A stretch of 64,000 nt of DNA from Spirochaetota bacterium (lineage in GTDB: Bacteria; Spirochaetota; JAGLSM01; JAKPMW01). The position numbers and the translations under genes were made by a program. Positions 404 through 64,000 of this stretch are shown here, one piece after another. Numbering within the stretch: position 1 is the first letter of the stretch; each line of letters opens with the position of its first letter. The stretch spans positions 14,923-78,922 of the forward strand of contig JAITCI010000076.1 in NCBI GenBank assembly GCA_031283155.1, in the 5' to 3' direction. Below the pieces are notes generated by a model that was not told the DNA's origin, ran no database searches, and saw only the letters and a program-made list of their open reading frames with translations.

Positions 404-420
404 ATTGTATGCAATACAGG

Positions 421-450
421 AGACGCCTTCCGCGGAGGGCGTCTTTTTTT
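421..450 (+). terminator. Rho-independent terminator-like hairpin (GACGCC..tccgcgga..GGCGTC + T7)
   Basis: GC stem containing the internal palindrome tccgcgga, followed by TTTTTTT, directly after the stop at 403. Confidence 0.6.
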
Positions 451-536
451 GCCATAGCACAATAAATTTGATCCCTTCTTCCATCCATTGTATAATAAGC
501 GCTACAGATTTATCAATCTCGCGAGGCGGTCCGGCA

Positions 537-2165
537 ATGGGAACACTCCAGAATAATTCAGCACAGGAAGTTACGCAGGTACAGAGGAAGGCGCGAATTC
601 TTGTTTACGTGGTGAGCATTGTTGTTTTACTTGAAATCATTTTTGCCACCATTATCGCGCAATCGGCGGTGGGTGATGCGGCTGAAATCAGGCAAAAAGA
701 AATGGCAATAGCTTTCGAAAATTACCAGAACCTGGTCATCTTTAAGCTCCTCAACAGAACGCTCACCGGCTATGCCTTCTGGGCGGATATAGGGGATGCG
801 CTGAACGCGAAAGGGCAAATCTCGGAGTCGTTGGCGGATGATTGGTTTACCGGGAACACCGAGTTTAACGACTATGCCGCGATTCTCCACAAGGGTGAGG
901 TGATTATTGAGGACGGTCTTGCCACGGAGGATGTAGCGGAATTTATTCAGGATCCGCGGTTTCAGAAGCTGTACGAAGCGACGTCCATGGTTCAGGGTTC
1001 CGAGACGAATCAATACATCACGCATTATAACGGCAAAACCATTTTCTTCCTGATGAGTCCCAATGCGGATAGCGGCGGCGTCCCCAACGCCGAAGGGGTG
1101 CAGATATTCGCGACTGTTTTCGACAATTCGCTGGATACCGTTGGTTCTTTTATGAACGCGCAGGTCAGTTTTGACGAGATCAAAGGAGCTTCTGAAACCT
1201 TTACGCTTCCCATTGTGGATAGTCTCGACAAAAATTCTATCCGGAATCTGTATATCGCTCCGAATATCTCGCTCAGGCCGCTCGTGTTTGTTCCCATGTT
1301 CAGTTCTCTGGGCGCGCAGTTGATTATTACGATAGCCATCCTTGTGGTATTCGTTATTTTGCTTGGAACCATCTCCAAACTCTTCAGCCAGATCAGCGTC
1401 CTCTATGACGAACTCAAAAAGAATAACGCGCGCCTTGAAGCCGAGCTGAAGCTGGCGGGCTATGTGCAAAGGGGCATACTCCCGGAAGAGGGGAGCTACC
1501 GCAGCCGGCTTCCGATTGGGCGTCTCGCTATCAAGTTCGCGCCCTCGCAGCAGGTCAGCGGCGACGTCTATGACATTGCCATGACGGAAGACGCGGAGTG
1601 GGTTATCATGATGGACCTGACCGGCCACGGTCTCCCGGCGGCGCTTCTGACCACCTTTGCCACGATGGCTTTCCGCGAAGAGGTTCTGCATTGCGCCGGC
1701 CCCGAGGAACTCTTCAAAAAAATGTCGGGTCGCCTCGGGCACTACCTCCCCGAAGGCACATTCGTCGTTGCTATATGCGCAAAATTAACCGGCGAGGTGG
1801 TCGAGTTCTCCTCCGCCGGCGGCGAGGATTGCTATTTTTTCAGGAAGCGGGAGAACAAGATGTACGCGCTCAAGTCCTCCGGAACCATGCTGGGTATTCC
1901 CGGAGGCGCCTCCGATTGGCAGAGCTATCGTTTCCAGCTCGAGTCGGGAGATCGCCTCTTGTTCTTCAGCGACGGTATCCTCGACATACCGATTGCCGAA
2001 GGCGGCAAGCTCGGCGGCGAGGCATTCCTCAATATTTGCCGGAAACACCTTGGCCAGCATCCGCAGCAGGTGGTGGATAAGGTCTTTACCGATATCGAGG
2101 CTATGGCGAAGCCCGACGCCGAGCGCGACGATGTGACGATGCTGTGTATCGGCAAGGACGAGTAA
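537..2165 (+). CDS. Sensor-domain SpoIIE/PP2C-type serine phosphatase (membrane sensor + PP2C)
   Basis: C-terminal GDVYD..DLTGHGLPAALL motif typical of SpoIIE/PP2C, with N-terminal TM segments. The ATG at 537 follows a TATAAT-like box near 488-496. The ORF-track start at 405 lies inside the upstream terminator. Confidence 0.8.
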   Translation: MGTLQNNSAQEVTQVQRKARILVYVVSIVVLLEIIFATIIAQSAVGDAAEIRQKEMAIAFENYQNLVIFKLLNRTLTGYAFWADIGDALNAKGQISESLADDWFTGNTEFNDYAAILHKGEVIIEDGLATEDVAEFIQDPRFQKLYEATSMVQGSETNQYITHYNGKTIFFLMSPNADSGGVPNAEGVQIFATVFDNSLDTVGSFMNAQVSFDEIKGASETFTLPIVDSLDKNSIRNLYIAPNISLRPLVFVPMFSSLGAQLIITIAILVVFVILLGTISKLFSQISVLYDELKKNNARLEAELKLAGYVQRGILPEEGSYRSRLPIGRLAIKFAPSQQVSGDVYDIAMTEDAEWVIMMDLTGHGLPAALLTTFATMAFREEVLHCAGPEELFKKMSGRLGHYLPEGTFVVAICAKLTGEVVEFSSAGGEDCYFFRKRENKMYALKSSGTMLGIPGGASDWQSYRFQLESGDRLLFFSDGILDIPIAEGGKLGGEAFLNICRKHLGQHPQQVVDKVFTDIEAMAKPDAERDDVTMLCIGKDE

Positions 2166-2191: not shown

Positions 2192-2226
2192 AGAGCCCCG
2201 ATGCTATGCAGTCGGGGCTCTTCTTA
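2192..2226 (+). terminator. Rho-independent terminator (GAGCCCCG..loop..CGGGGCTC + TTCTT)
   Basis: Perfect 8-9 bp GC stem and a U-rich tail 27 nt after the stop at 2165. Confidence 0.65.
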
Positions 2227-2350
2227 TAACTCCCCCCAATAACAAAAAACAGAGGAACCGCTTTTTGATGAGGCGTCGCACATAAAATTGTCCGCAGAGG
2301 TGAAGTTTGCGGCGGAAAACCCGATATTTCACAAAAGAGGCGGGAAATCC

Positions 2351-4315
2351 ATGCAGGCGCAAACCCAATCTGTGCGTACCACTTTCTCCGCGCGGCGAAC
2401 GACCATGCAGATCAGCGGGGAAGCCGCGCATTCGCATCATGCAAGCGTGTGTGCATCGCCCGCCGCGATTCCCGATAATCCTTATCTTTCGAGCCAGCTC
2501 ATCGCCTATATCGGCAACAAACGCCGCCTCTTGCCGCTGATCCATCGCGCGATAACGCTCTGCGGGGTACCTCGTCCGGGTACGCGGTCTCTGTTTGTGG
2601 ATTTTTTTGCGGGCAGCGGGGCGGTGAGCCGGCTTGCCAAATTGCTCGGCTTTCATGTGATCGCGAATGACTGGGAGGAATACGCCTGGATCCTGAACGA
2701 GGCGTTTCTTGTCACCCAGCCCGGCGATCTCGAAACTCTGTTCGCGGAGAAGGGCGGCCTTGCCGAGGTACTCGCCCGTCTCAATTCGCTGGATGCTGAT
2801 GTTTGCCGGAATGGATTCATCAGCCGGTATTACGCGCCGCAAAAAACAGAGGACGCCGATCCCGAACGCGAGCGGATGTTTTATACGACGGAAAACGCGC
2901 GCAGGATCGACGCGATCCGCGCCTGGATTGAATATGAGTATCCGGGAGAGATTCTGAATGAGCGGCAAGCTATGGAGAAGCGTCTTCTCCTGGGATTGCT
3001 GCTCTATGAGGCGGCGACGCACGCGAATACCTCCGGCGTGTTTAAGGCCTACCATTGCGGCTTTGGGGGGCGCGGCGGCGATGCGCTTCAGCGCATTCTG
3101 AAACCGGTGGAACTGGAGTATCCGGTATTATGCGCGGGCAGCGCGGAGGCGTACCGGGAGGATGCGGAACATTTCGCAAAACGATTCGCGGATGGGAAGC
3201 GCGGGATAGATATCGCCTATCTTGATCCGCCCTACAACCAGCATCAATACGGCTCAAATTATCATTTACTGAACACCATCGCGCGCGGCGATATGCCCAA
3301 GGTAAATGAAAAGCCGCTCGCCAAAACACGCGGGAGCGCGGACAAGGCGGGGATCCGGCGCGACTGGGTGAAAACCCATTCCCCCTTTTGCAGCCGCAGA
3401 GACGCGAGCCGGGCATTTGCGGATCTGCTCCGGGTGATTCGCGCGCGGCATATCCTGATCTCCTACAGCACGGAAGGGATGATCCCCGTTGCAGAGATGA
3501 TCGCGATTCTTGGGCGGCATGGCCGGCTTGATCTGGTACTCTCGGAGTATACGCGCTATCGCGGCGGGAAGCAGGCGCTCACCAGTACAAACGCCAATGT
3601 TGAATTTGTTCTGATTGCGCATACGGAGGAGGCGAATACCGAGGCGAATACGGCAAGGGTGCTGCGCGCGATCCAGACCGCGCAGCTTGGGCTGTATCTG
3701 AAGCGCGTGGTAAGCCCGGCGGTGCTGATCGCGCGGGGGTATTGCGTGCGGGGAGCGCTCTGTATCGACGATGGGCTGGAGTTTGTCAGGACCCTTGCAA
3801 GCGGTGTAACCCTCGCTGTTACTGTAAAAAAATTCAAATGGATTGAGGCCTGCGTTTTCCGGCGGGGGCAGGAAGAATTGCAGCTCTGCGCGATGCCTGA
3901 GCCGGAATATGCCGAGGTTCTCTGCGAGATAGCGGCGATCACCTCGATAACCCGCGACGAAGAGCTGGGCGTGACCATGAGCCGCGCGCGCTATTTGCTC
4001 GCGAAGGGAAATATTCCCTCGCTTGCGGAGCCGCTTGCGGAGATACCCTATTTGCTCAAAAAATTCAACGAAAGCACAGATTATTCCGACTCGCTGAAGC
4101 GGCTGGATGAGGCGCTCGTGATCGCCCTGGAGATTGCGGATACAATGGAAGAGCGCCCATGTTCGGCGGGGCTTGCAAAAAAACACGTACTTTTCGCGCG
4201 TCGGCTGCAATTTCTGATGGATCGCAAGCTCGCGCTCCTGCCAAAGAAAAACGATCCGGATTTGTATAGTCTGCGCCGCGATCTGGACGCGCACTCCGCA
4301 AGACTTTTTCCTTGA
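2351..4315 (+). CDS. Dam-family (D12-class) N6-adenine DNA methyltransferase with ~200-aa uncharacterised C-terminal extension
   Basis: YIGNKRRLLPLI resembles the Dam N-terminal 'AGGK..LL' motif. FFAGSGAV is the SAM motif I (FxGxG) and DPPY is motif IV. Good SD (aagagg) before the ATG at 2351. The ORF continues to 655 aa with no recognisable C-terminal domain. Confidence 0.8.
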   Translation: MQAQTQSVRTTFSARRTTMQISGEAAHSHHASVCASPAAIPDNPYLSSQLIAYIGNKRRLLPLIHRAITLCGVPRPGTRSLFVDFFAGSGAVSRLAKLLGFHVIANDWEEYAWILNEAFLVTQPGDLETLFAEKGGLAEVLARLNSLDADVCRNGFISRYYAPQKTEDADPERERMFYTTENARRIDAIRAWIEYEYPGEILNERQAMEKRLLLGLLLYEAATHANTSGVFKAYHCGFGGRGGDALQRILKPVELEYPVLCAGSAEAYREDAEHFAKRFADGKRGIDIAYLDPPYNQHQYGSNYHLLNTIARGDMPKVNEKPLAKTRGSADKAGIRRDWVKTHSPFCSRRDASRAFADLLRVIRARHILISYSTEGMIPVAEMIAILGRHGRLDLVLSEYTRYRGGKQALTSTNANVEFVLIAHTEEANTEANTARVLRAIQTAQLGLYLKRVVSPAVLIARGYCVRGALCIDDGLEFVRTLASGVTLAVTVKKFKWIEACVFRRGQEELQLCAMPEPEYAEVLCEIAAITSITRDEELGVTMSRARYLLAKGNIPSLAEPLAEIPYLLKKFNESTDYSDSLKRLDEALVIALEIADTMEERPCSAGLAKKHVLFARRLQFLMDRKLALLPKKNDPDLYSLRRDLDAHSARLFP

Positions 4316-4420
4316 TATTGATCCGCGCACCATACTACAATACGCCGTACCTTGCGGGAACATACTGTCTGCAAAGGTGTAATCTACCGCTGTGTCTGCA
4401 TTTGCGGCACAATGCGATGA

Positions 4421-4624
4421 GTGTGGAGGAAAACCATGAGTTCAAGGTTAATTATTATCGTTGTGTTAATAGCGGCCGCTGCTTTGTTTGTCATCCCGTG
4501 GCTTGATGGCGGAAAGATGGCTTTCGTAAGCGGTAATTTCATTTCTCTTCCGGGCTGGCTTGCCTGTATTATTCTTGTTGCCATTGGATACGCGCTGGCG
4601 CTTTTTATGGGGAAAAAAAGATAA
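4421..4624 (+). CDS. Small 2-TM membrane protein (tentatively DUF1049/LapA-like)
   Basis: SD ggagg precedes the start. Two hydrophobic helices, a basic C-terminus (KKR), and a paralogue of the next ORF. Confidence 0.55.
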   Translation: MWRKTMSSRLIIIVVLIAAAALFVIPWLDGGKMAFVSGNFISLPGWLACIILVAIGYALALFMGKKR

Positions 4625-4651: not shown

Positions 4652-4837
4652 ATGCAAGCAAAAACAGTCATCCTGATTCTGCTGATAGTCTGGGCGGTAT
4701 TTCTTATTATTGCGAATTCAGGACAAACAGGACTGATCTTACTTCCCGGAGTGAGTATATCTATGCCAACATTTATCTTTGGTCTTATTTTCCTGGTCAT
4801 TGGCTATTTTCTGCCCGTGCTTCTCAGGAAAAAATAA
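4652..4837 (+). CDS. Small 2-TM membrane protein, paralogue of the preceding ORF
   Basis: SD gaggggg. Same architecture (TM, short loop, TM, RKK tail). Confidence 0.55.
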   Translation: MQAKTVILILLIVWAVFLIIANSGQTGLILLPGVSISMPTFIFGLIFLVIGYFLPVLLRKK

Positions 4838-4870
4838 AAAGCCCATGTTTACTTGATTGGCAAGAGGCAT

Positions 4871-5692
4871 ATGAGTGTAATCTCAGGGAAGCTCGGTTAC
4901 CGGGCTTCCCTGTTTTGGATCACGTTTGCGGTTTTTGTGTTTTTTTTCGCCCTGCTTATGCAGGGAATGCCGATTCCGGCGATACAGATCTTTTTTTTAG
5001 TTATGGCGGTATGCGGCGCGTATCTTGCCCCGTTTCCGGCGGAGAGGTATGCAGCCGGGCGCGAGGCCATGTTTGCGCGCTTATCGCTCAGGCGGCTGCC
5101 TGTTTCGGATTGCCTGCTGATCGCGCTTGCGGCTCTGCTTCTTCTGCCCGCATTAACCATGCTTTTTGAACAGGGTATGCGGCTTATTCCCGGGTATCCT
5201 GACTACGCGCGCAATGCGGAAGCGGTCTTCCGGCGCGGTCTCGCCGAACAAGGCGTATGTACGCTTTTTTGTTCTTTGGCGGCGCTGTCGGCGATCTGCG
5301 AGGAATTCTTTTTTCGCGGGCTTTTTGCGTCAGGCTTGCGCGAGACAGGGCTTTCGCGTCCGGTGCGCATATTTTCAGGCGCGCTTTTTTTCGCGATCAT
5401 GCACCTTGATCCCTGGCGGCTCCTCCCGATGTGTACACTCGGCATGATTATGATGTGGCTGGTTGAACGAAGCGGGAGTATATGGGCACCGGTTATTTAT
5501 CATTGTACGAATAACGCTTCGGTTTTGGGGCTTTCACTTTTGCGCAGTACTCAGGCTGCGTCAGCGGATTCCGCCGAGGTTCAGGATTTCTTCCTGACCG
5601 GAAGTCCTGCTCCTGTATCGGTACTGTTCGCGCTTATTCCGGCGGTATTTGGGTTGTACGCGCTCCGGCGGTCAAAAGAGCGAAAATACTGA
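4871..5692 (+). CDS. CPBP-family (CAAX/Abi-type) intramembrane metalloprotease
   Basis: CPBP signature motifs EEFFFRG (EExxxR), FAIMH (FxxxH) and HCTNN (HxxxN), with multiple TM helices. SD agagg precedes the ATG at 4871. Confidence 0.75.
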   Translation: MSVISGKLGYRASLFWITFAVFVFFFALLMQGMPIPAIQIFFLVMAVCGAYLAPFPAERYAAGREAMFARLSLRRLPVSDCLLIALAALLLLPALTMLFEQGMRLIPGYPDYARNAEAVFRRGLAEQGVCTLFCSLAALSAICEEFFFRGLFASGLRETGLSRPVRIFSGALFFAIMHLDPWRLLPMCTLGMIMMWLVERSGSIWAPVIYHCTNNASVLGLSLLRSTQAASADSAEVQDFFLTGSPAPVSVLFALIPAVFGLYALRRSKERKY

Positions 5693-6124
5693 GCCTTTTT
5701 TGGATACTTCCTGATCGCGCTGATAATAATTGGTTATAAAATGCGTTACTGCCGGGCGAAGATTATCGCGGGCGGCGAGTTCATTCAGGTTCTGCCCCCA
5801 GTCCGCCTGAAAGATGGGATAGTTGCGCGCGGCTTTGTTTTCCCCCAGGCGAATCATGGCTCTGTCGAGTATACAATTTGTGCTGACCCTCAGAAAAACG
5901 ACGCCCTCATCCTGGGGAATGGTAAGCATATATCCCATCAGCGCCTCGGCGTCGGAGACGCGGAAGAGCTTATAATTTTTTTCGGTATACGCGCTGTACC
6001 CCACGCTGTCGGGGTAAAATTCGGTGCGTACCGCGTATTCCGGCGGCAATGCGCAGGAGGCGAGAACCGTAAAAAGAGCGGCTATAACAAACATATCGGC
6101 GAGTAAGCCGGCGCGATTCACCAT
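5672..6124 (-). CDS. Hypothetical lipoprotein
   Basis: Signal peptide with a lipobox-like LASC. The opposite-strand ORF 5741-6106 has no features. Confidence 0.55.
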   Translation of the reverse strand: MVNRAGLLADMFVIAALFTVLASCALPPEYAVRTEFYPDSVGYSAYTEKNYKLFRVSDAEALMGYMLTIPQDEGVVFLRVSTNCILDRAMIRLGENKAARNYPIFQADWGQNLNELAARDNLRPAVTHFITNYYQRDQEVSKKGSVFSLF

Positions 6125-11144: not shown

Positions 11145-12872
11145 TTAGCTGCTTGTAAGCCATTTGGTTATGCGGTGCAAAAAAGAGAGGGAGCGGGCCG
11201 GCTTTTGCCGTGAAACAGCTTTGTTGCCCATGTCTTCGCGGCAGAGCATATGCCCCTCTTGCAGAATGGGCAGCGCCGCGAGATATGCGGCATGCAGGGT
11301 TTCCGCCTCGCTCGCTCGCGAACACACAAGAGAGCAGACACGCCCGTCGGGGTCATTCCGGGGATAGCGCGCGATACGCATATTCCAGGGTGTTTCCGGC
11401 AGCGCATTTTCCGTGGTTTGCCCGTCTGCAGCACAGCAAGTGTGATCGGCGCGGAACACTATACTTATAGCGTTTCGGCCTGTGGGCTGTATATCCTCCA
11501 TCGCAAGTTCGTCTTTACTTGCGGCGAGGGCGAGTTTTGCCGTGCCGTGGCCGAAGGAAAGAAGATTCACCTCGCACTCGGGCGCTTTCAATCCCAGGCT
11601 GAAACTGCGCAGCATAAGATAGCCTGTTTCACTCTCCCATAGCCGGAGACTCACAAAGCCGCGATGGATGATGCCTTCCCGCCGGAACACTGCCTGGATT
11701 CTTTTGCAAAAGAGCCGATGTACTCTTTCCGGCAGACCCGAGTCGCCGGTATAGGCGGGGGAATATGCGCCCACACCGGCGGTCATACGTCCCTGGTTTC
11801 CGTTTTCAGCGCGCAGCGCGAGATCAGCCGCCCCGAGAATGCGCATACCAAACTTATCGGCGATACCTGTCAGAGCCAGCTCGCGCCCCTGATCGGGTAT
11901 CGCCACCGGAGGCAGGCACACAACCCGTGCCTGCGCGAGCAGGGTGCGGAAATATGCCTCTTCATGCGCGATTTTTACAGAGCGGATCCCGAAACCCACG
12001 GCAGGTATACCGGTCTCGGCAAGAGTTTCCCCAAGTCGCATGAGTTCCTCATTGGCTTCCGCGACTATGGCAAGCGGGATCTCGCTGCGGCGGGCGAAAT
12101 CAATGAGATCATTTTCATTTCCGGTTGAACAAGCGCCAAACCGCGCTTTACCCTGGACAGGCAGTGAAGCTGTCAGGCAGTCGATATCCTCGGCTGACGC
12201 CCGGTACAGCCAGACAAATTCTGTGTCCTCGTTTATGATCAGCGCGCTCGCGAGGGCAAGCGCTTCCGGTCCTCCGCCGAAAACCAGGATCGAGGAAAAT
12301 GTATCCGGGCGGGGAACGCGAATGTGGGCAAATGCCTTTTCGAGCCGGTTTACCCCTTTGTCAAAATTATCAAGCTGGGTATGCAGAAAAGATATCCGCA
12401 GACTGCTTTCCACAGTGATGCGGCGCAGGTTTTCCGCGATTTCTTTTAAGTCCTTCAGGGAACGTTCTACTGTGTCATACCGCGTAATCAGCGAACTGCG
12501 AAGATCGTCGATATCTTTTTGGATCATTTCAGGGAGTTTGGCAGTCGCTTCGGGATTGGGATCATAGTCTCCCTCGCTGAATTGCCGGAGAACGCGGTGG
12601 AGCGCGTCTGTCGGACCGCGAAGTTTTTTTGAGAAGAGGAGCGACCGAATGAGCAGAATCACAAGCGCGGAGAGAATGGCGACAGTTAAAATTCCGCCGC
12701 CGCTCATAAGCACAAAACTGGCAAAGTTATCAAAGCCGAATGTTCGCTTTAATACGCGCGGATCCTCAAGAGCATGTAAAAGGATATACAACAATATCAG
12801 AAGACCCGCCAGGGTGAAGAAACTGATCGAGATAAGTTTACGAATGAGATTTTTATCGGGGGTGCGCTGCAA
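11145..12872 (-). CDS. Membrane-anchored PurD-like (phosphoribosylamine-glycine ligase family) protein with N-terminal TM/coiled-coil region; ATP-grasp lid region shortened
   Basis: C-terminal half aligns to PurD: ILVFGGGPEALALA ~ VLVIGNGGREHALA, GVGAYSPA ~ GGMGAYSPA, GFVSLRLW ~ GFLYAGLM. The N-terminal 200 aa has two TM helices and coiled-coil. The segment between the N-domain and GxGAYSP is about 70 aa shorter than in E. coli PurD. Confidence 0.7.
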   Translation of the reverse strand: MQRTPDKNLIRKLISISFFTLAGLLILLYILLHALEDPRVLKRTFGFDNFASFVLMSGGGILTVAILSALVILLIRSLLFSKKLRGPTDALHRVLRQFSEGDYDPNPEATAKLPEMIQKDIDDLRSSLITRYDTVERSLKDLKEIAENLRRITVESSLRISFLHTQLDNFDKGVNRLEKAFAHIRVPRPDTFSSILVFGGGPEALALASALIINEDTEFVWLYRASAEDIDCLTASLPVQGKARFGACSTGNENDLIDFARRSEIPLAIVAEANEELMRLGETLAETGIPAVGFGIRSVKIAHEEAYFRTLLAQARVVCLPPVAIPDQGRELALTGIADKFGMRILGAADLALRAENGNQGRMTAGVGAYSPAYTGDSGLPERVHRLFCKRIQAVFRREGIIHRGFVSLRLWESETGYLMLRSFSLGLKAPECEVNLLSFGHGTAKLALAASKDELAMEDIQPTGRNAISIVFRADHTCCAADGQTTENALPETPWNMRIARYPRNDPDGRVCSLVCSRASEAETLHAAYLAALPILQEGHMLCREDMGNKAVSRQKPARSLSFLHRITKWLTSS

Positions 12873-21858: not shown

Positions 21859-22069
21859 CAAAGCGGGGTCGCGGAAGGTCAGCGGCGCTGGGCTGCGCCC
21901 GCCGGGTACACTGAGGATGTGTGCGCCCCGCAACACGGCGAAGTGTCCTGTGGGTAATGTTGCGTTTTTGGGCTGCGAGTTGACAGGACGTCAGCGCGCG
22001 GTAGGATAAGGAAAAATATTGATGTGGAGTTTGTCAAAAGGACAAACAAAAACAGAAGGAGATAATGCC

Positions 22070-22900
22070 ATGAAAGTGCCTCAATACCTTGAACTGTTTA
22101 ATCCCGTGTTGCTGGCTTTACACGCTTTAGGTGGAAGCGGCTCAGTTGAAGAGATATATAGCAAGGTTATTGAACAGCAAAATTATTCTGCTGATGTTGT
22201 AAATGCTACTCGAGGGAACAGGCAAACGGCTCTGGAATACAATCTTGCATGGGCAAGAACATATCTGAAAAACTATGGACTCATAGAAAATACCGCCAGA
22301 GGAATTTGGAGTATTGCGAGTGGAAAACTTGGTATTACAGAAGTAGACGCAAAAGCAGTCGTAAATTATGTCCTATCGATGCCGAAAAAAATAAAAGATA
22401 GTTCTGCTGAGGATATTCCTATTAATGAAAGTATAAAGTGGCAGGAAGAATTATTGGAAATTTTACTAAGCATATCGCCGGAAGCCTTTGAGCGGCTCAC
22501 GCAAAGAATATTGCGCGAATCGGGTTTTTCACAAGTAGAGGTGACGGGCAAAACTGGCGATGGCGGAATAGACGGGAGAGGACTATTTAAGGTAGCAAAG
22601 CTCATTAGTTTTAGGGTGTTTTTCCAATGTAAGAGATGGCAGAAATCGGTGTCAGCCAGCGATATACGTGATTTTCGTGGGGCTTTGCAGGGAAGAGCCG
22701 ACAAAGGGTTATTTGTCACAACAGGGAATTTCACACGAGATGCAATGAAGGAGGCTTCCCGCGATGGTGCTCCGCCGATAGATCTGATCGATGGCGAGAT
22801 GCTGACAGACATAATCAAAGAGCTGAATCTCGGGTTACTTATCGAGATAGAACAAGTCGAAAAAATTACAATAAATAAAAATTGGTTTTTGCAAATATAA
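22070..22900 (+). CDS. mrr: Mrr-family type IV (modification-dependent) restriction endonuclease
   Basis: Mrr_N winged-helix N-terminus, and a Mrr_cat core with GDGGIDG ... QCKRW ... LFVTTGNFT. Strong SD aaggaga. Confidence 0.85.
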   Translation: MKVPQYLELFNPVLLALHALGGSGSVEEIYSKVIEQQNYSADVVNATRGNRQTALEYNLAWARTYLKNYGLIENTARGIWSIASGKLGITEVDAKAVVNYVLSMPKKIKDSSAEDIPINESIKWQEELLEILLSISPEAFERLTQRILRESGFSQVEVTGKTGDGGIDGRGLFKVAKLISFRVFFQCKRWQKSVSASDIRDFRGALQGRADKGLFVTTGNFTRDAMKEASRDGAPPIDLIDGEMLTDIIKELNLGLLIEIEQVEKITINKNWFLQI

Positions 22901-22928
22901 AGGAAATTGTAATTCAGGAGGAATCATT

Positions 22929-23282
22929 ATGAGCATCGCGAATATGTTTGAAGAGAAATCAAAGGGGATTGAATACGCGCCGCACAAGAAATTCAAAGGG
23001 GTATATCTGAAACACCTTGTCACAGGCGCAATGACGGATAACCGGATAAGCTGCCATTTGGTTAAGGTTGATCCGTTTTGTGTGCTTGAAGCGCATACTC
23101 ATCCCGAGCAGATTGAGATTCATGAGGTCATCGATGGCGATGGCGTTTGCACAATCGCGGATAAAAAATTGCAGTATACGCCCGGAGTTGTTGAAGCTGT
23201 TCCGCAGGGCGTTACGCACGAGGTAGTAGCGGGAAAAGACGGCATATATATTCTGGCGAAATTTGTCCCTGCGCTTCTCTAG
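22929..23282 (+). CDS. Small cupin-domain protein
   Basis: HTHPEQIEIHEV ... GVTHEV has the cupin His/Glu pattern. SD aggagg. Same AT-rich composition as mrr. Confidence 0.7.
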   Translation: MSIANMFEEKSKGIEYAPHKKFKGVYLKHLVTGAMTDNRISCHLVKVDPFCVLEAHTHPEQIEIHEVIDGDGVCTIADKKLQYTPGVVEAVPQGVTHEVVAGKDGIYILAKFVPALL

Positions 23283-41562: not shown

Positions 41563-43956
41563 ACCATGACGACCTACCATATATGGCAGCAGCAAAAGAC
41601 CGGCCAGACGCGCGAGGTCAGGCAGGGTTTTTCGGTGGTTTTTCTGTATCTCTCGCCCGTACTCGCGTTTTTTGCGATGAAAATATTTGATTTTGTGACC
41701 GGCCGGATGAATACCGACGCCGTGTATGTGTATCTCCAGGATTCCCTGGGCGACGCGGGTTCAAGGATGGTTTTCTTCATCGCTTTTATAGTCCTGACAA
41801 TCCTCGCGTATCTTGCGGGCGGGCGGTTTTCTGTCTGGAGGGAAAAGCGTCTCCTCGCGCGCGGGTTCCTCAAAACCGAAAATAAAACGCAATCCCTGCC
41901 CGAACTCGTAACGCGGCGTTCCATCGGCGTGGTACCCGGGGCGCAAAGCGCGCCTTACCGCTTTGTCCGCAATGATTTTTATTGTGCGGGGGTTGCTTTT
42001 CTTGTCTCCTTTGGGGTGTACCTCTTCACCATGACTCCGGAGCTCTGCACGGGGGACAGCGGCGAACTCACAACGGCCATGTATAACCTGGGCGCCGCGC
42101 ATCCTCCGGGAACGCCGCTCTTCACCATGATAGGCAAGATCTTCATCTATCTTCCGATTGGCAGCGTCGCGTACCGCGTGAACCTCATGGCGGCTTTTTT
42201 CGGCGCGCTCACGGCGGCGTTCCTGTTTTTGCTGCTCTTCCGCCTTCTGCATCGCGGCGCGGAGGAATCCGTGTGTATGCGCGACCGCCTGATTGCGCTT
42301 GCGGGATCGCTCTTCTTCGCTTTTTCGATGACCATGTGGGGCGAAGCGATAGTGGCGGAAAAATATACGCTCAACGCTTTTTTCGCGCCCGTGCTGCTTC
42401 TGGCGGCGCTGGTTTGGCAGGAGTGCGTGTTTTCTTCACTCCAAAGGGGAAAGCAGTCCTATTCGGAAAAGTATCTTCTGCTCATCGCTCTGTTGCTCGG
42501 GCTTGCGTTTACAAACCACCATCTTCTGCTGGGGTATATTCCGCCCTTTGTGCTGCTCTTTTTTGTGGTGACGCAGTTTATGGGCGAGCCGAATGTCAAC
42601 GCCGCCTGCGTAAGCAAAAATACCGCCAATATGCTTCTGTCCGCCCTGATATGCCTGATGAGTTTTCTTCTTTTGGCGGTTTTTGGCGAGCGCGCGATTA
42701 CGCTCACCCAAATCCTGTTTGCCGTATGCGCGCTCTGCGCTCTGACGGCGGCTTCTTATCTGCTTTTGTACTGGTTAAAATCGCTGACCGGTTTTTCGCA
42801 GATTCCTCTGAAATTTCAGTACACCTGCGGGGCGGTCGTAGCCGGGGTGGGCGCTCTCTCGGCGCTTGTCGTGCTGCAAAACGCCTGGAACGTCAGCCTT
42901 CTCTCCGACGAAGGCGCCGCGCGCACACTCGCCGCGATCCTGGCACCCCTTATCACGCTTGGGGCGACGGCTATCGTTCTCCTGAATCGTTTGCCCTCGA
43001 AAGGGGGCCTGCCCTCGAAAGAGGGTAAACCCGATATCCGCAGCGGTTTGCGCAAAGAAAAGCGTTTACTCCTGTGGGGGCTCGGCGTCTGGACGGCTTT
43101 TCTTCTGCTTGTGCTTTTTGAGAAGAGCGTACTCTCGGTACTGCGCCTCCCGCTCTTTTTTCTGCCATCTTCGTGGTTTGCCGATACGCGAATCCGCGAG
43201 AGTCTCGATTTTATCGGCGTGGACTGGGGGTTCACGCTTATCGCTTTGCTTGTGTATATCCTGGGCGCGACGATTGCGGTATTCGCGTATATGCGTGTGC
43301 GCAAGGGAACGCAAATCAGGGAGCGTTTTGTGGAGATGAGCAGCATCCTCTTCAAGGGAGCTTTAATCATCCTGCTGCCCATGCTGCTCTATATGACCCT
43401 GGTGATTCGCGCGAACGCCATCGCGAAAATTCCCGACCCGCCGCTTTCCTGGGGAGAAACGGTCAACGCAAGCCGTGTTATTAACCATTTTTTGCGCAAG
43501 CAGTACCCAAAGGCGAGTATGTATTCGTATAACCGCATTCCCGAGATCGCGAACGGCTGGATGAAGATGCACGTAGCGCAATATTTTCCGCTCTCTTCCA
43601 CAGTGGGGGCGAACTGGAAGGCGGGCGAGATTCTGATCGCCCTGCCTGTTTTTCTTTTGATGATTGCATTGGGTATGCGCGCGCTCTGGAAGCGCAACCG
43701 GCTGTGGTTTTGGGTTCTGCTTGCCTGTTTCGTAACTTTTAATGTTCTTCTGACCACCATGCTCTCGCCCAAGGATACCCAGCGGGACTGGTATTTTAAC
43801 CAGGCATTTTACGTTCCCTCGCATCTCATCGTGGGTATCTGGTTTACGTTCGCGTTTTACGCAATAGCGGATTTTGCGGGTAAGCGGTTTTGGCTGAAAA
43901 AACCGAAAGAGATTGCGCCCGAAGGCGCAGATCCGGAAGAAGGAGCGGCGCAATGA
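41563..43956 (+). CDS. DUF2723/TMEM260-like polytopic membrane glycosyltransferase-family protein
   Basis: GDSGELTTAMYNLGAAHPPGTPLF is characteristic of DUF2723 (protein O-mannosyltransferase-like). Many TM helices. SD ggagaag before the ATG at 41563. Confidence 0.8.
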   Translation, partial: TMTTYHIWQQQKTGQTREVRQGFSVVFLYLSPVLAFFAMKIFDFVTGRMNTDAVYVYLQDSLGDAGSRMVFFIAFIVLTILAYLAGGRFSVWREKRLLARGFLKTENKTQSLPELVTRRSIGVVPGAQSAPYRFVRNDFYCAGVAFLVSFGVYLFTMTPELCTGDSGELTTAMYNLGAAHPPGTPLFTMIGKIFIYLPIGSVAYRVNLMAAFFGALTAAFLFLLLFRLLHRGAEESVCMRDRLIALAGSLFFAFSMTMWGEAIVAEKYTLNAFFAPVLLLAALVWQECVFSSLQRGKQSYSEKYLLLIALLLGLAFTNHHLLLGYIPPFVLLFFVVTQFMGEPNVNAACVSKNTANMLLSALICLMSFLLLAVFGERAITLTQILFAVCALCALTAASYLLLYWLKSLTGFSQIPLKFQYTCGAVVAGVGALSALVVLQNAWNVSLLSDEGAARTLAAILAPLITLGATAIVLLNRLPSKGGLPSKEGKPDIRSGLRKEKRLLLWGLGVWTAFLLLVLFEKSVLSVLRLPLFFLPSSWFADTRIRESLDFIGVDWGFTLIALLVYILGATIAVFAYMRVRKGTQIRERFVEMSSILFKGALIILLPMLLYMTLVIRANAIAKIPDPPLSWGETVNASRVINHFLRKQYPKASMYSYNRIPEIANGWMKMHVAQYFPLSSTVGANWKAGEILIALPVFLLMIALGMRALWKRNRLWFWVLLACFVTFNVLLTTMLSPKDTQRDWYFNQAFYVPSHLIVGIWFTFAFYAIADFAGKRFWLKKPKEIAPEGADPEEGAAQ

Positions 43957-45863
43957 AAAAATCGCAAACAATTCCGGGCGCTGTGACCTTGCTTTTTATT
44001 CTGGTGCCGCTTCTTGCGCATCTGGAAAAAAATAATAACCATCTTGATTACACAAACCATGAATACGCCAAAAATTTGCTCAGTACGCTGGAACCCTATT
44101 CCATATTCATGACCGAGGGCGGCGATAATCAGGTTTTTGCGACGGCCTATAGCCAGATGGCCGAGCAGCTCAGACCGGATGTGCGCGCCTATGACCAAAA
44201 GGGCAATGTCTTTTACAGAATTTACGGCGATTTCCGGTATATCTCGGTCGTCGAGGCGGATATCAAGCGGGATGTGGTTGACTACGAAATTTTTTCGCGC
44301 GGAAGGCCGGTCTATCTTACCTGGCGGCGCAGCCCCGACGTTGCTGTCTGCGGCGATTGGTTTCTGAAGCGCTCCGGGATGCTTTTCAGGATTGTTCCGC
44401 TCAAATATCGGATCCTTGAGGATCTGGGCGCAGATCTCGAGATCACCATTGAAGAAGCGCATCGCTGTATCGAAAAATATTATGCCGACGAAACCATTCT
44501 CAAAAAAAAGCAGGCCAATCTGAAGGCCATGGACTGGTATCGCCCCGCGATTTTTGGCCAGGGGAACGTGAGACTGCATTTCATCAGCGAGGAGGAGTTT
44601 TCGCGCCTGCAGCGCGCAGTCCCCGCCTATATGGAATGGCTGAAGGGAAGTCTTGCGCGCAATATTACGCCGCAGTTTACCCTGGCTCTGCTGCGCGAAC
44701 TGGAGGCGGAAGGGTATCTGCGCATAACCGGAAACCGCGTGGTTTTTGTCCGGGATATCGCGCAGCCTTTTGCGGGGGATTACTGGGAAGGCTATTCTTT
44801 TACCTATAAAAATGTTCCTCACGCTATCCAGTGGAATTATCTCGCGCGCGAGATATTTACAAATTATAATTTTTATTATGCGGAATACTGCCGCTGGATG
44901 CTGGAGCGTTTACGCAGGCGGCAGGCTCATTATGAGCGTAAAATACAGGAACTCGGGCCAAGCCCCGAACTGGCCGGGGCGCTTGACAAAACCCGGGCCG
45001 AAATAGATCGCTTTGCGCAGCTTGAGGCGGAAAGCTATCAGAGCGCCGCGTATTTTGGCTATGACATGGGGGCGATCTTCCATAACCTGGGCGCGATCCA
45101 GGCGCAGAGAGGGCAGCTTGACGAGGCCGTGGGTTATTTTCGCCAGGGGATAGTAGCCGACAAGTATTCCTATCAGACGGTATCATCCTACATCATGCTT
45201 AGGCTGCGGCAGGCGAATGAGCGGATGGATCCCGTATTTGAAGAAGAGACATTGCGCGAGTCGGAACAGATAGTTCAGGCTGCGTTGCGAAATCTGAGAA
45301 AAACCTATGCCGCCGACGACGAGAGTTTACGAAAGGATCAAACCGCGAGGATTCTCGATAATCTTGATCAGGGCTGGCTCGCGCCCAGAAAAAACTATCC
45401 GCTCGGCATCATTTTGCAGTATAAGCAAATTCTCGATAATAAGCCCGAGGACCCTTCGATTCAGAAGCAGCTTGCCTCCATAATCTATTATCAGCGGCGT
45501 GATCCTGAACTCTTGGTCAGAATTTTTGAAACCATGCACACTTCAAAATGGAACAACGAAATGGTTGTGTATATATACGGCGTATCCATTCAGGATACCG
45601 GAGAGCTTGAGGCGTCGATAGCAATTTTTGAGCGTCTGCGGCGCGAAAAGCCCTTATTCTTTCTTTCGGTCTGGCGGCTTGCGCAGATACACGAAATACT
45701 GCTGCAGGACGAAACGAAGGCTTTACGGTATTACGAAGAGCTGCTGCGGATACCCGAGGCAGCGGTTCGCGCATTATATCCCGACCTCACGAAAGCCTTT
45801 ACCGATAGCGTACAGATGGCGGAGAAGTATATTGCGAAAGCGCGCCAGTCCGCCGCGCGCTGA
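43953..45863 (+). CDS. TPR-repeat protein, translationally coupled (ATGA overlap) to the DUF2723 gene
   Basis: Signal/TM N-terminus followed by a helical repeat protein. Confidence 0.7.
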   Translation: MKKSQTIPGAVTLLFILVPLLAHLEKNNNHLDYTNHEYAKNLLSTLEPYSIFMTEGGDNQVFATAYSQMAEQLRPDVRAYDQKGNVFYRIYGDFRYISVVEADIKRDVVDYEIFSRGRPVYLTWRRSPDVAVCGDWFLKRSGMLFRIVPLKYRILEDLGADLEITIEEAHRCIEKYYADETILKKKQANLKAMDWYRPAIFGQGNVRLHFISEEEFSRLQRAVPAYMEWLKGSLARNITPQFTLALLRELEAEGYLRITGNRVVFVRDIAQPFAGDYWEGYSFTYKNVPHAIQWNYLAREIFTNYNFYYAEYCRWMLERLRRRQAHYERKIQELGPSPELAGALDKTRAEIDRFAQLEAESYQSAAYFGYDMGAIFHNLGAIQAQRGQLDEAVGYFRQGIVADKYSYQTVSSYIMLRLRQANERMDPVFEEETLRESEQIVQAALRNLRKTYAADDESLRKDQTARILDNLDQGWLAPRKNYPLGIILQYKQILDNKPEDPSIQKQLASIIYYQRRDPELLVRIFETMHTSKWNNEMVVYIYGVSIQDTGELEASIAIFERLRREKPLFFLSVWRLAQIHEILLQDETKALRYYEELLRIPEAAVRALYPDLTKAFTDSVQMAEKYIAKARQSAAR

Positions 45864-55023: not shown

Positions 55024-56925
55024 ATGTCGCTCCGAAAACGGGTTTCTTTTTTTCTGCTGCTCTATTGCACCATTGCCGCGCTTGCTGTCGGGTTTGTGCA
55101 ATATTTTGTCGCGCAGGATTACCTGTATAATAATGTCCGCGATCAGTCGCAAATTCTTTCCCTGGCAGTAGCGAAAGCCATAAACGGGGATGTACACGCA
55201 TCCCTGGCGGAAAAGGGTTTACGCGCCATAGCGGATCCCTGGTATGTGCGCTATTTTGAGTATATCCGGAAATTAAAAAGACTGTATCCCATACAGTCTG
55301 CGGCGAATATTTTCACGATTCATTATGATGCCGGAAATTCCCTTTGGCGGTACGTTCTGGACGACGGCATTATGCCTCAGGATGGGGTTTGGCTTAAGAT
55401 GCAGGACATTGCCCTCGATGTGCATTGCACTCCCGAAGGGCAGCTCAGGATTGTGTATGGGTTTTTAACGAATACCTCCGACTTTAACGCCAGGGTGAAC
55501 GATAAAATAATTCCGATCCATTTTGAAGGGGAAGCGCCCCGGCAAAGCCTGTTTGTGCTGGGCAAAAAAATCCTGGAGGTGAAAGAATATTCTCCGCATC
55601 TCGTTATGGATACCGTACTCGGAGAGATGAGCCGGGACAGCAGGGAACTCTTCGGCGAGGTGGAGATTCAGGGCAGGCCAATCACAGCGGCTATGGCCTT
55701 TTGCGCGCAGGGCGAATCCCAGAGCCAGCCCGGTATGGTTTTTGTCCGATATCCCGCATTTTATGAAATATGCAAAGAAATTTTGGACAAGAATCAGGAC
55801 GTAACCATAATGGATAATCTGGAGAACATCTGGGGCAACGAGGATTTTATCGCTGTTTCGCCTATATGTACGGATGACGGCGTACCCAATGGGCTGGTGT
55901 GTTATGAGGTTTTTGAACCCATTTTTGTTGCCTTTCAGAATAAGCTCTTCAGATCAATGGCCGCTATCGCCATTCCGATTATCATGCTCGCGTTTGTTTT
56001 ATCCTATTTCCAGGGGCAGCGGCTTGTTCGCCCGGTGCTGAACCTGGAACAGGCATTCAAGAGCATTGTGCAGGGTGATTTTTCGACGCGCATCAGCCTG
56101 GGAAGTATCGATGAGTATGCGGAACTCGCCGCGAGTTTTAACCTTATGACCTCCCGCCACGCGGATTACGTTGAGGAGAGCAAAAAAAATGCCGCCAATA
56201 TGCGCGAGATGGAATTGGCGCGATCCATTCAGGAATCCCTGATTCCGAAAGACATTCCTGTTTCTCCATTTTATAATATCGCGTGCAGATATTCGCCGCT
56301 GCATACAGTGGGGGGCGATAGCATTTGTTTTCGCCGGGGGAATGAAAACCGAATAGGGATTCTTGTGAGCGACGTGGCGGGGCACGGACTGTCGGCGGCG
56401 CTGATCAGCAGTATGGTACATATCGCCTTCGATTTTGAATTTCCGCGCGCGTTTCGCGCGAGCGATCTTTTGGTTGGACTCAATCAATCGCTCTTCAGCA
56501 AGTGCGTCGGCGAGAAGTATGTCACAGCCTGTTATGCCCATCTCGATTTTGGCCGCCATCGCTTTTTTGTCGCCAATGCCGGGCACCCGCCGCTGATTGT
56601 CTACAGAAGCGACAGGGATGTTTTTGAATTTATTAAACCCAAAGGGATCCCCGTCGGCTGTTTTGCCGATGCGCAGTACGAGAGCGAGGTGCGTAATCTG
56701 CAGACAGGCGATCGCATCATTCTGTATACCGATGGGATCAGCGAAGCGCGGCGGGGCGATGGGCAATTGTTCAGCGTGTCCCGTTTTCTTGAGGTTGTCA
56801 GGGAAAATGCCGCGCTTTCCGCCGATAATTTTGCCGACAGGGTGCTTTGGGAAGCGCGCACGTGGCGGGACGCGAAGGACTCCATCGAAGACGATATGAC
56901 CATAGTCGTCGTCGATATTGCCTGA
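55024..56925 (+). CDS. Sensor-domain SpoIIE/PP2C-type serine phosphatase (periplasmic sensor-TM-HAMP-PP2C)
   Basis: HAMP (FKSIVQGDFSTRI), a PP2C core (GGDSICF ... VSDVAGHGLSAALISS) and an N-terminal TM. Confidence 0.8.
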   Translation: MSLRKRVSFFLLLYCTIAALAVGFVQYFVAQDYLYNNVRDQSQILSLAVAKAINGDVHASLAEKGLRAIADPWYVRYFEYIRKLKRLYPIQSAANIFTIHYDAGNSLWRYVLDDGIMPQDGVWLKMQDIALDVHCTPEGQLRIVYGFLTNTSDFNARVNDKIIPIHFEGEAPRQSLFVLGKKILEVKEYSPHLVMDTVLGEMSRDSRELFGEVEIQGRPITAAMAFCAQGESQSQPGMVFVRYPAFYEICKEILDKNQDVTIMDNLENIWGNEDFIAVSPICTDDGVPNGLVCYEVFEPIFVAFQNKLFRSMAAIAIPIIMLAFVLSYFQGQRLVRPVLNLEQAFKSIVQGDFSTRISLGSIDEYAELAASFNLMTSRHADYVEESKKNAANMREMELARSIQESLIPKDIPVSPFYNIACRYSPLHTVGGDSICFRRGNENRIGILVSDVAGHGLSAALISSMVHIAFDFEFPRAFRASDLLVGLNQSLFSKCVGEKYVTACYAHLDFGRHRFFVANAGHPPLIVYRSDRDVFEFIKPKGIPVGCFADAQYESEVRNLQTGDRIILYTDGISEARRGDGQLFSVSRFLEVVRENAALSADNFADRVLWEARTWRDAKDSIEDDMTIVVVDIA

Positions 56926-62897: not shown

Positions 62898-62961
62898 ACC
62901 GCAAAAATGCTTTCTATTATTATGCCTTGCCGATCACAGGAGCAATACAAAGGAGCAGAGG

Positions 62962-64000
62962 ATGGCATTGCGCTTGTTCAATACAATGACGCGCCAAAAG
63001 GAGGATTTTGTTCCCCTCGTCGCGGGCAGGGCGGGGATGTATACCTGCGGCCCGACTGTGTATGCGTATGCGCACATCGGGAATTTCCGCGCCTATATCT
63101 TTGAGGACCTTTTGCACCGTGTGCTTCGCTATTGCGGGTACGAGGTGACGCAGATCATGAATCTGACCGATGTGGACGACAAGACAATTCGTAATTCGAT
63201 TGATAGCGGATTTTCGCTTTCCGAATATACAGCGGTTTATAAGAAGGCGTTTTTTGATGATCTGCGCGCCCTGGATATTGTGCCCGCCGCGGCCTACCCC
63301 CAAGCGACCGCGCATATCCCGGAGATGATCGCGATCATCCAAACGCTGCTCGACAAGGGGATTGCCTACGAGCGCGACGGCTCGGTTTATTTTAGTATAG
63401 CGAAATTTCCGGAGTATGGGCGGCTCGCGCACCTTGATCAGGAGGGGCTGCGCGCGGGCGCGTCGGGGCGCGTGGATAACGACGAGTACGAGAAGGACAG
63501 CGCGCATGATTTTGTGCTCTGGAAGGGCTATACCGAGAAAGACAGGGACGTGGTTTGGGATTCGCCTTTTGGGCGCGGACGGCCGGGCTGGCATATTGAG
63601 TGTTCCGCCATGAGCATGAAGTATCTTGGCGAAACCATGGATATACACACCGGCGGCGTTGATAATATCTTTCCGCACCACGAGAACGAGATCGCGCAGA
63701 GCGAGGCGGCCACGGGCAGGCCTTTTGTGCGTTATTGGCTGCATTGCGAGCACCTTGTGGTTGATGGCGAGAAGATGTCTAAATCGAAGGGCAATTTTTA
63801 TACGCTTCGCGATCTCCTCGCGAAGCAGTGGTCTGCGCGCGCGATCCGTTATCTCCTGCTGGCGACGCATTACCGCAGGATGCTCAATTTTTCCGAAACA
63901 ACATTCCGCGCTGCCGAGGCTTCGCTGGCGCGTCTCGATACCTTTGCGCTGGACGTGGAACGGTTCGCGGATGCGCGCGCGGGCGAGGCTGCACAGGCGC
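62962..64000 (+). CDS. cysS: Cysteinyl-tRNA synthetase (3' truncated by window edge)
   Basis: HIGN (HIGH-type) motif and KMSKS (EKMSKSKGN). CysS-typical [16 protein letters not shown]. Confidence 0.95.

Follow-up and report, generated by a model that had tools for sequence, protein, structure and literature searches.

The 64,000-nucleotide stretch of contig JAITCI010000076.1 analysed here (the window), from a Spirochaetota bacterium, raises the question of what a DNA adenine methyltransferase of 654 amino acids (aa), about twice the length of Dam and with no restriction enzyme beside it, does for its host, and what its additional C-terminal region is for. The gene occupies positions 2351..4315 of the + strand (654 codons plus stop). 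The explanation that best accounts for the data, with a probability of roughly 0.7, is that it encodes an active stand-alone D12 N6-adenine methyltransferase of a spirochaete family, with an AATT-core target and an accessory tail. The enzyme would methylate the second adenine of RAATTY-type (AATT-core) palindromes on both strands, and would be the counterpart of M.TdeV, M.SsmMII, M.Sth6578II, M.Saf8902I and M.Tca7334II. Its N6-methyladenine (m6A) mark would serve genome-wide epigenetic functions and not protection from a cognate nuclease, as with other orphan methylases; the mark may regulate genes at sites that bound regulators keep unmethylated, or may label the cell's own DNA.

The open reading frame (ORF) named in a preliminary description of this DNA proved real, with matching coordinates, and its assignment to the Dam/D12 adenine methylases at about twice the length of Dam was upheld. 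The D12-class model PF02086 matches aa 53-327 (E = 1.9e-19; 70.8 bits against a cut-off of 22), and the motif order, YIGNK, FAGSG, recognition region and DPPY, is that of the alpha group. In an alignment of 79 family members (A1), the N-terminal conserved D12 motif YIGNK (aa 53-57; 2507..2521, +) is nearly invariant. Within FAGSG (aa 86-90; 2606..2620, +), the FxGxG motif I that binds S-adenosylmethionine, F86, G88 and G90 are invariant, as are N226, S228, G229, V230, F231 and K232 of NTSGVFK (aa 226-232; 3026..3046, +), the signature of the internal target-recognition region. The catalytic motif IV, DPPY (aa 292-295; 3224..3235, +), which is followed by NQHQYGSNYHLLN, does not vary at all. 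About 60 invariant residues lie within aa 84-418 of this alignment, to which the C-terminal tail adds two, E538 and K571. The Dam-subfamily model TIGR00571 reached 21.1 bits against a cut-off of 114.85 and aligned with aa 50-107 only, indicating that the protein belongs to the D12 class yet is not a GATC Dam.

Among the PADLOC models, the 581-position 'MTase_II' profile PDLC03345 aligned through positions 10-433 with aa 38-462 (E = 4.4e-141), and PDLC03257 aligned through positions 6-340 of 343 with aa 44-424. Alignment to stand-alone relatives and the structure model extend the methyltransferase module to about aa 426, beyond the Pfam match. Residues 37-426 (2459..3628, +) hold a complete alpha-group D12 module, internal target-recognition region included, according to the PF02086 and PADLOC matches and to the alignments with two relatives described below.

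A tblastn search of annotated plasmids and phages aligned aa 45-426 of the methylase with complete stand-alone methylases of about 330-430 aa. The best match, at 39% identity, was a 1293-bp 'DNA modification methylase' gene of Acinetobacter baumannii, located between ribD and the riboflavin synthase gene. This gene is taken to be aamA (A1S_0222), since its length equals that of the 1293-bp aamA fragment amplified by polymerase chain reaction for complementation, and since aamA is the sole adenine-methylase gene among the three orphan methylases deleted in the same work (PMC10483419). In a BLASTP comparison, aa 38-426 of the window protein aligned with aa 14-395 of AamA at 39% identity (E = 6e-77). 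GAATTC is methylated by AamA in vitro, and related AATT-core motifs were partially methylated in all strains tested (PMC10287943); the consensus TTTRAATTYAAA has been proposed for AamA in vivo. AamA is thus, like the window protein, a chromosomal orphan, its 39% identity over the catalytic module includes the recognition signature, and its AATT-core targets are those proposed here. It differs in its length of 430 aa, in having no C-terminal domain, in its best PADLOC match (PDLC03257 and not PDLC03345) and in its preference for the extended TTTRAATTYAAA. Four A. baumannii records of 1.0-4.1 Mb (CP035931.1, NZ_CP077849.1, NZ_CP064203.1 and NZ_CP104448.1) are entered in PLSDB as plasmids, yet carry nrdR, ribD and lptF, which belong to the chromosomal core; they are chromosomes or chromosome fragments, and 'plasmid' matches to them are misleading.

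The next match was a 384-aa D12 methylase from plasmid pCP157_17 of Paracoccus marcusii, with 36.6% identity over aa 42-422. Next to it, with a start that overlaps the stop codon of the methylase gene, lies a gene for an EcoRI-family nuclease (PF02963, E = 2.5e-16). This methylase shares the NTSGVFK signature with the window protein, but it belongs to a plasmid-borne restriction-modification pair and has no tail. Judged by these alignments, residues 37-426 of the window protein are a complete enzyme, equivalent to the whole of the stand-alone AamA and of the Paracoccus plasmid methylase. The pair of EcoRI-family nuclease and AamA-type D12 methylase lies at 1106-2976 of pCP157_17, a 6-kb plasmid (locus L088). 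Classical methylase partners of EcoRI-like nucleases are of the EcoRI type (PF13651) or the RsrI type, and the AamA-type methylase of pCP157_17 would be a third methylase lineage serving such nucleases.

Comparison of ten sequences showed that the segment NTSGVFK[AGS][FY]H and the insertion GG...AL.RI that follows it are present in the window protein, in the Treponema, Marispirochaeta, Brachyspira and PVC-like (Planctomycetes/Verrucomicrobia-like) members of the family, in AamA and in the Paracoccus methylase. The NTSGVFK segment is missing from three relatives with 26-32% identity, from Sulfurospirillum, from Psychrobacter and from a streptococcal phage, where the gene is annotated 'ulcer associated adenine specific DNA methyltransferase'.

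Published spirochaete methylation data point in the same direction. Blow et al. (2016, PMC4752239) report RA(m6A)TTY methylation by a conserved orphan methylase in 6/6 sequenced Spirochaetaceae, the most represented new orphan family, and state that the motif and the orphan enzyme are likewise known from Campylobacter jejuni. The spirochaete enzymes for RAATTY entered in REBASE include M.TdeV/TDE0706, M.SsmMII/Spirs_2892, M.Sth6578II/Spith_1825, M.Saf8902I/Spiaf_1714 and M.Tca7334II/Spica_0084 (PMC4752239). Spirochaeta africana has just three methylase genes, for the Type II m6A RAATTY enzyme, a Type IIG enzyme and a 5-methylcytosine enzyme, and RAATTY methylation recurs in Thiospirochaeta and Oceanispirochaeta. 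The window methylase agrees with the REBASE enzymes in being a D12-class Type II m6A orphan of spirochaete-wide occurrence, with matching Joint Genome Institute (JGI) product names; it differs in belonging to a long-tailed subclade of 615-660 aa, whereas most family members from Treponema and Marispirochaeta have 550-600 aa. It is very probably a member of this RAATTY family, matched on the description of those enzymes and not on their sequences. CtsM/M.CjeNI (Cj0208) of C. jejuni and M.Cco280II of C. coli are also orphan Type II m6A enzymes for RAATTY, here likened by description and not by sequence, but they have about 364 aa (1095 bp in M.Cco280II) and no tail. The role of CtsM is the marking of self-DNA for uptake in natural transformation.

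From the sequence relationships and the published methylation data together, the RAATTY orphan enzyme of the host is the most likely product of the gene. Four points weigh against this assignment. The identity of 37-39% to AamA and the Paracoccus methylase is too low for a safe transfer of specificity. The NTSGVFK signature was defined in this analysis, from the ten sequences, and is no published criterion. Spirochaetes also have m6A methylases for ATTAAT and TTATAA, so that conservation as an m6A methylase among spirochaetes does not by itself point to RAATTY. Finally, TDE0706, Spirs_2892, Spith_1825, Spiaf_1714, Spica_0084 and Cj0208 were not among the best 120 matches of three homologue searches, which were seeded with the window protein, a Marispirochaeta member and a Treponema socranskii member. 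The base sequence of the window says nothing either way: RAATTY occurs 117 times against 124 expected, and the counts of RAATTY, ATTAAT, TTATAA, GATC and others were uninformative.

The alternative that survives best is that the protein belongs to the same orphan family but has another target, either the ATTAAT or the TTATAA palindrome or a clade-specific variant. S. smaragdinae, Thiospirochaeta and Oceanispirochaeta have methylases for ATTAAT and TTATAA besides the RAATTY enzyme, the long-form clade is only about 49% identical to the Treponema members in the catalytic module, and specificity can shift among closely related methylases (PMC3526280). Nevertheless, the nearest informative relatives, AamA and the partner of the EcoRI-family nuclease, both point to an AATT core. 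Blow et al. place ATTAAT in 1/6 of the Spirochaetaceae, with TTATAA not seen in the table passages, and the presence of RAATTY in all six fits the near-universal distribution of the window methylase family. We therefore regard a different target as unlikely.

The second question is whether the methylase works without a nuclease. The preliminary description had called it an orphan, with no nuclease, specificity subunit, or BREX or DISARM component adjacent, and this held both here and in the loci of its relatives. The contigs of the window protein and of four increasingly distant homologues were examined, and the ORFs within 4 kb of the methylase were then clustered over 86 loci. No nuclease-like cluster was found among the ORFs of these 86 loci, and tblastn with the EcoRI-family nuclease detected nothing in them or in the 64-kb window. 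Within PADLOC, the methylase matched the generic MTase_II and oMTase models only, and no methylase model specific to BREX, DISARM or another multi-gene defence system (such as PglX or DrmMI). Apart from a Type IV Mrr gene at a distance of 18 kb, no nuclease is encoded in the window. The methylase is an orphan, without an adjacent cognate restriction endonuclease.

It could still provide the modification activity of a restriction-modification system with a distant or unrecognised nuclease. Blow et al. (PMC4752239) document Type II systems in which 36 kb or more separate the nuclease gene from the methylase gene, and for this reason call orphans 'candidates'; restriction enzymes are hard to recognise by sequence, and a restriction-modification-linked cousin of the methylase exists on the Paracoccus plasmid. 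Set against this, the 86 loci of diverse lineages have no conserved non-housekeeping neighbour and no EcoRI-family homologue, and the methylase sits in syntenic core-genome contexts. In addition, the published spirochaete RAATTY enzymes leave some sites unmethylated, which is the signature of an orphan (PMC4752239). A hidden or distant nuclease is accordingly a very unlikely explanation.

The genes just downstream are those that the preliminary description gave, two for small membrane proteins, each of about 60 aa, and one for a CPBP/Rce1-like protease. A SpoIIE phosphatase gene lies upstream, and the other neighbours are an unannotated 150-aa ORF on the - strand, CheX and leucyl-tRNA synthetase. 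Housekeeping genes make up the rest of the window, among them those for isoleucyl-tRNA synthetase, TrkH, isoamylase, a molybdopterin oxidoreductase and a hybrid histidine kinase. Close relatives have the methylase between SpoIIE on one side and a small membrane protein, then the CPBP protease, on the other, and in other lineages it sits among quite different genes. The commonest neighbours in the 86 loci resemble a MurE-type ligase (20 loci), methionyl-tRNA synthetase (11), HflK/HflC (10-11) and a QueD-like enzyme (9), as read from cluster representatives without a family scan.

The family to which the methylase belongs is large. More than 3,000 significant matches, homologues of 550-660 aa with the two-part architecture, were found in a search of 5.8 billion proteins; the best 120 are nearly all of 525-725 aa, apart from two shorter entries that are probably partial, and the named entries among these 120 are labelled 'DNA adenine methylase' and come from Spirochaetota. 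One database protein identical to that of the window (P0001, 654 aa) is annotated 'DNA adenine methylase [Spirochaetota bacterium]' and comes from a metagenome-assembled genome of Spirochaetota; the identical gene is also present on a contig from SRR14710906. A scan of one genome per GTDB species revealed relatives in at least 592 species, of which the best 80 are almost all Spirochaetota. Cultured or named carriers include Treponema ruminis, T. socranskii, T. zioleckii, Brachyspira pulli and Candidatus Marispirochaeta associata, and also Oceanispirochaeta. Two length classes can be distinguished, a long form of 615-660 aa, which includes the window protein, and a short form of 550-600 aa, which is typical of Treponema, Marispirochaeta, Brachyspira and one PVC-like organism. 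PDLC03345 spans short-form members end to end (positions 14-575), so the two-part architecture of the methylase is already catalogued. The gene behaves as a vertically inherited chromosomal core gene of Spirochaetota and some PVC-like bacteria, and not as a mobile restriction-modification module.

What remains is the C-terminal family-specific domain, aa 427-654 (3629..4312, +). The preliminary description had seen no recognisable motif in the C-terminal region, and these 228 aa indeed matched no Pfam, NCBIfam, PHROG or PADLOC model; its boundary at about aa 470, in contrast, did not stand, the tail beginning at about aa 427 by alignment and model. AlphaFold2, run with the family alignment, gave one confident body (mean predicted local distance difference test score, pLDDT, 86.3; predicted template modelling score, pTM, 0.86). 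In this model the first 33 residues are a disordered leader and the methylase module reaches about aa 424; it is followed by a long helix at aa 431-450, a small antiparallel sheet at about aa 465-505 and a bundle of six helices over aa 517-652. Modelled alone, the tail reached a pLDDT of 91.7. Conservation in the tail is modest, with a handful of residues above 80% and two that are invariant: E538 in the TREEEL motif (3962..3964, +), in the 79 sequences and in the alignment of long-form tails (A2), and K571 in the IPxLLKKFN motif (4061..4063, +), in the 79 sequences, in A2 and in the alignment of short-form tails (A3).

A phmmer search tied the window tail to the long form only. Comparison of A2 with A3 by hhalign gave a probability of 97.6% (E = 3e-12) over 133 columns, covering the first helix, the small sheet and the helices through the LLKKFNNRKAY / LRKLAHKKYR motif, which indicates that the tail is one homologous domain common to the whole family. 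When the tail profile was run against 1.84 billion representative proteins, all 15 real matches were this methylase or fragments of it, and the fragments at contig ends still carried the YSTDGIIPF...KYRGGKQAL segment of the methylase; within this set, then, the tail neither stands alone nor is joined to any other protein. Three weaker matches to repetitive proteins, with many short matched stretches of low complexity, were dismissed.

In the explanation proposed here, residues 427-654 would be a non-catalytic accessory domain of every family member, packed rigidly on the catalytic module; this is its weakest step. The tail would most likely add contacts to DNA or to a partner, affecting processivity or substrate preference, and not sequence specificity, because AATT-core sites are still recognised by relatives that lack it. 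Since AamA, the methylase from Paracoccus and that from Campylobacter function, or are paired with a nuclease, in its absence, it is unlikely to set the core AATT recognition. Two features weaken the case for a simple DNA clamp: the net charge of the tail is +1 here, with a family median of +6, and NRKAY, the basic part of its best motif, reads ESTDY in the window protein.

That the tail is instead a fused effector with an enzymatic activity of its own, whether a nuclease or a recombination- or phage-related function, would be in keeping with its 228 confidently folded residues and its invariant charged E538 and K571. Yet structure prediction and profile searches returned a folded domain with no nuclease features, and fold and profile comparisons found no nuclease, no known DNA-binding fold and no specific fold match. 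The modest conservation of the tail and its net charge close to zero suit a structural or binding module and not a second enzyme. The idea of a novel fused effector and the rarity that it implied do not fit a tail that is homologous family-wide, in a methylase with more than 3,000 matches whose short forms are covered by PDLC03345; far from being something other than a common methyltransferase extension, the tail is essentially the extension of a catalogued Type II family. An effector is therefore extremely unlikely. An artefact in which a sequencing or assembly frameshift joined two genes, suggested by nothing beyond the unusual length, can be dismissed, since thousands of full-length sequences of independent origin are built of the same two parts, the identical P0001 lies on a 102,382-bp contig and was also recovered on a 14,312-bp Logan contig, and the protein is modelled as a single confident fold.

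A further possibility, which we put forward tentatively and consider doubtful, is that the tail is an undescribed accessory module that marks the chromosomal orphan branch of an otherwise restriction-modification-linked AATT-core methylase lineage, and adapts the enzyme to a housekeeping epigenetic role. The tail is absent from the plasmid restriction-modification cousin and from the short orphans AamA and CtsM. Such an adaptation might work through processivity, through a bias towards post-replicative, hemimethylated DNA, or through binding to a partner in the cell.

Other known adenine methylases are more distant. E. coli Dam, the best Foldseek match of the methylase model (4rtj, E = 3e-3), and T4 Dam share with it the alpha-group D12 fold, the motif order and the orphan state, but they recognise GATC, have a much smaller recognition region and lack the tail. 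CcrM and CamA resemble it as orphan adenine methylases with a substantial C-terminal region past the catalytic core, and neither appeared among its sequence or fold matches. CcrM, whose C-terminal segment helps DNA binding, differs in being a dimeric beta-group enzyme, and the window tail may be loosely analogous to that segment. CamA offers a poorer analogy: it is a gamma-group enzyme of 577 aa whose C-terminal part, at aa 320-577, serves as the domain for target recognition (PMC8187626). It was ruled out as a model for the window protein by its gamma-group order, its C-terminal recognition domain and the absence of a sequence or fold match.

The start of the methylase was placed at the ATG at 2351 because a Shine-Dalgarno-like AAAGAGG, read from the sequence at 2336..2342 (+), lies about 8 nucleotides 5' of it, and because the N-terminus MQAQ is common to the methylase and its closest homologue (P0002, 82% identity). 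The listed ORF runs uninterrupted over 2288..4315, and two alternative starts, TTG at 2288 and the ATG at codon 19, were discarded in view of the ribosome-binding site and MQAQ. The N-terminal leader of about 36 aa (2351..2458, +) is poorly conserved and predicted to be disordered (pLDDT below 50 for residues 1-33); the N-termini of homologues begin 10-30 aa ahead of YIGNK. Two antisense ORFs, 2204-3055 (-) and 3266-4363 (-), of 283 and 365 aa, overlap the gene and are taken to be stop-poor shadow frames typical of coding sequence rich in guanine plus cytosine (G+C). An inverted repeat at 2192-2221, AGAGCCCCGA ... TCGGGGCTCT with a 10-nucleotide loop, follows the SpoIIE stop codon and is itself followed by TCTTATAA. 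A consensus terminator scan missed this repeat; it may be a candidate terminator, which would give the methylase a transcription unit of its own.

Several further features of the surroundings were recorded. The tandem membrane-protein genes at 4421-4624 (+) and 4652-4837 (+) have no family match and stand ahead of the CPBP/Rce1-like protease gene at 4853-5692 (+). One or two small membrane proteins and a CPBP protease also adjoin the methylase in two relatives' loci, L001 (10451-11707) and L002 (10227-11400), where the 150-aa ORF at 5672-6124 (-) is likewise conserved beside the protease. This ORF has no Pfam match, nor do those at 62920-63870 (-), 43890-45863 (+) and 11145-12872 (-), of 316, 657 and 575 aa. 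SpoIIE/PP2C-type phosphatases with sensor regions are encoded at 405-2165 (+) and 55024-56925 (+) of the window. Such a phosphatase adjoins the methylase in the window, in L001 and in L002, and two more lie downstream of a 40%-identical homologue in L004 (10723-13161 and 15696-17780) and in L005; this proximity may reflect the mere abundance of SpoIIE/PP2C phosphatases in spirochaetes.

The Mrr gene (22019..22900, +) was correctly recognised in the preliminary description, with matches to PF04471 (Mrr_cat, 1.2e-30) and PF14338 (Mrr_N, 2.2e-14). Its kilobase, 22001-23000, has a G+C content of 0.41 and a GC skew of 0.25, compared with a G+C content of about 0.55 in the rest of the window, which suggests a recent horizontal acquisition of the gene. 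The preliminary description had held that an Mrr nuclease and an m6A methylase in one genome must be compatible. Mrr-family enzymes may differ in what they recognise. The E. coli enzyme responds to certain methylases only, HhaII (GANTC) among them, and the sequence that it recognises has yet to be defined (PMC3973329). Mrr beside an m6A methylase is no paradox, and the concern over compatibility has little weight.

The methylase gene itself is ordinary, being one more copy of a large and already noticed family, and carries little weight as a discovery. Its interest lies in the clade, in which a recognition-region signature ties the spirochaete family to AamA and to a methylase paired with an EcoRI-family nuclease. 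This clade yields a testable RAATTY prediction for hundreds of uncultured spirochaetes, usable for enrichment based on ApoI or XapI. The family-wide tail of 150-230 aa has so far had no structural or functional description, and its truncation could show what an orphan methylase gains from it.

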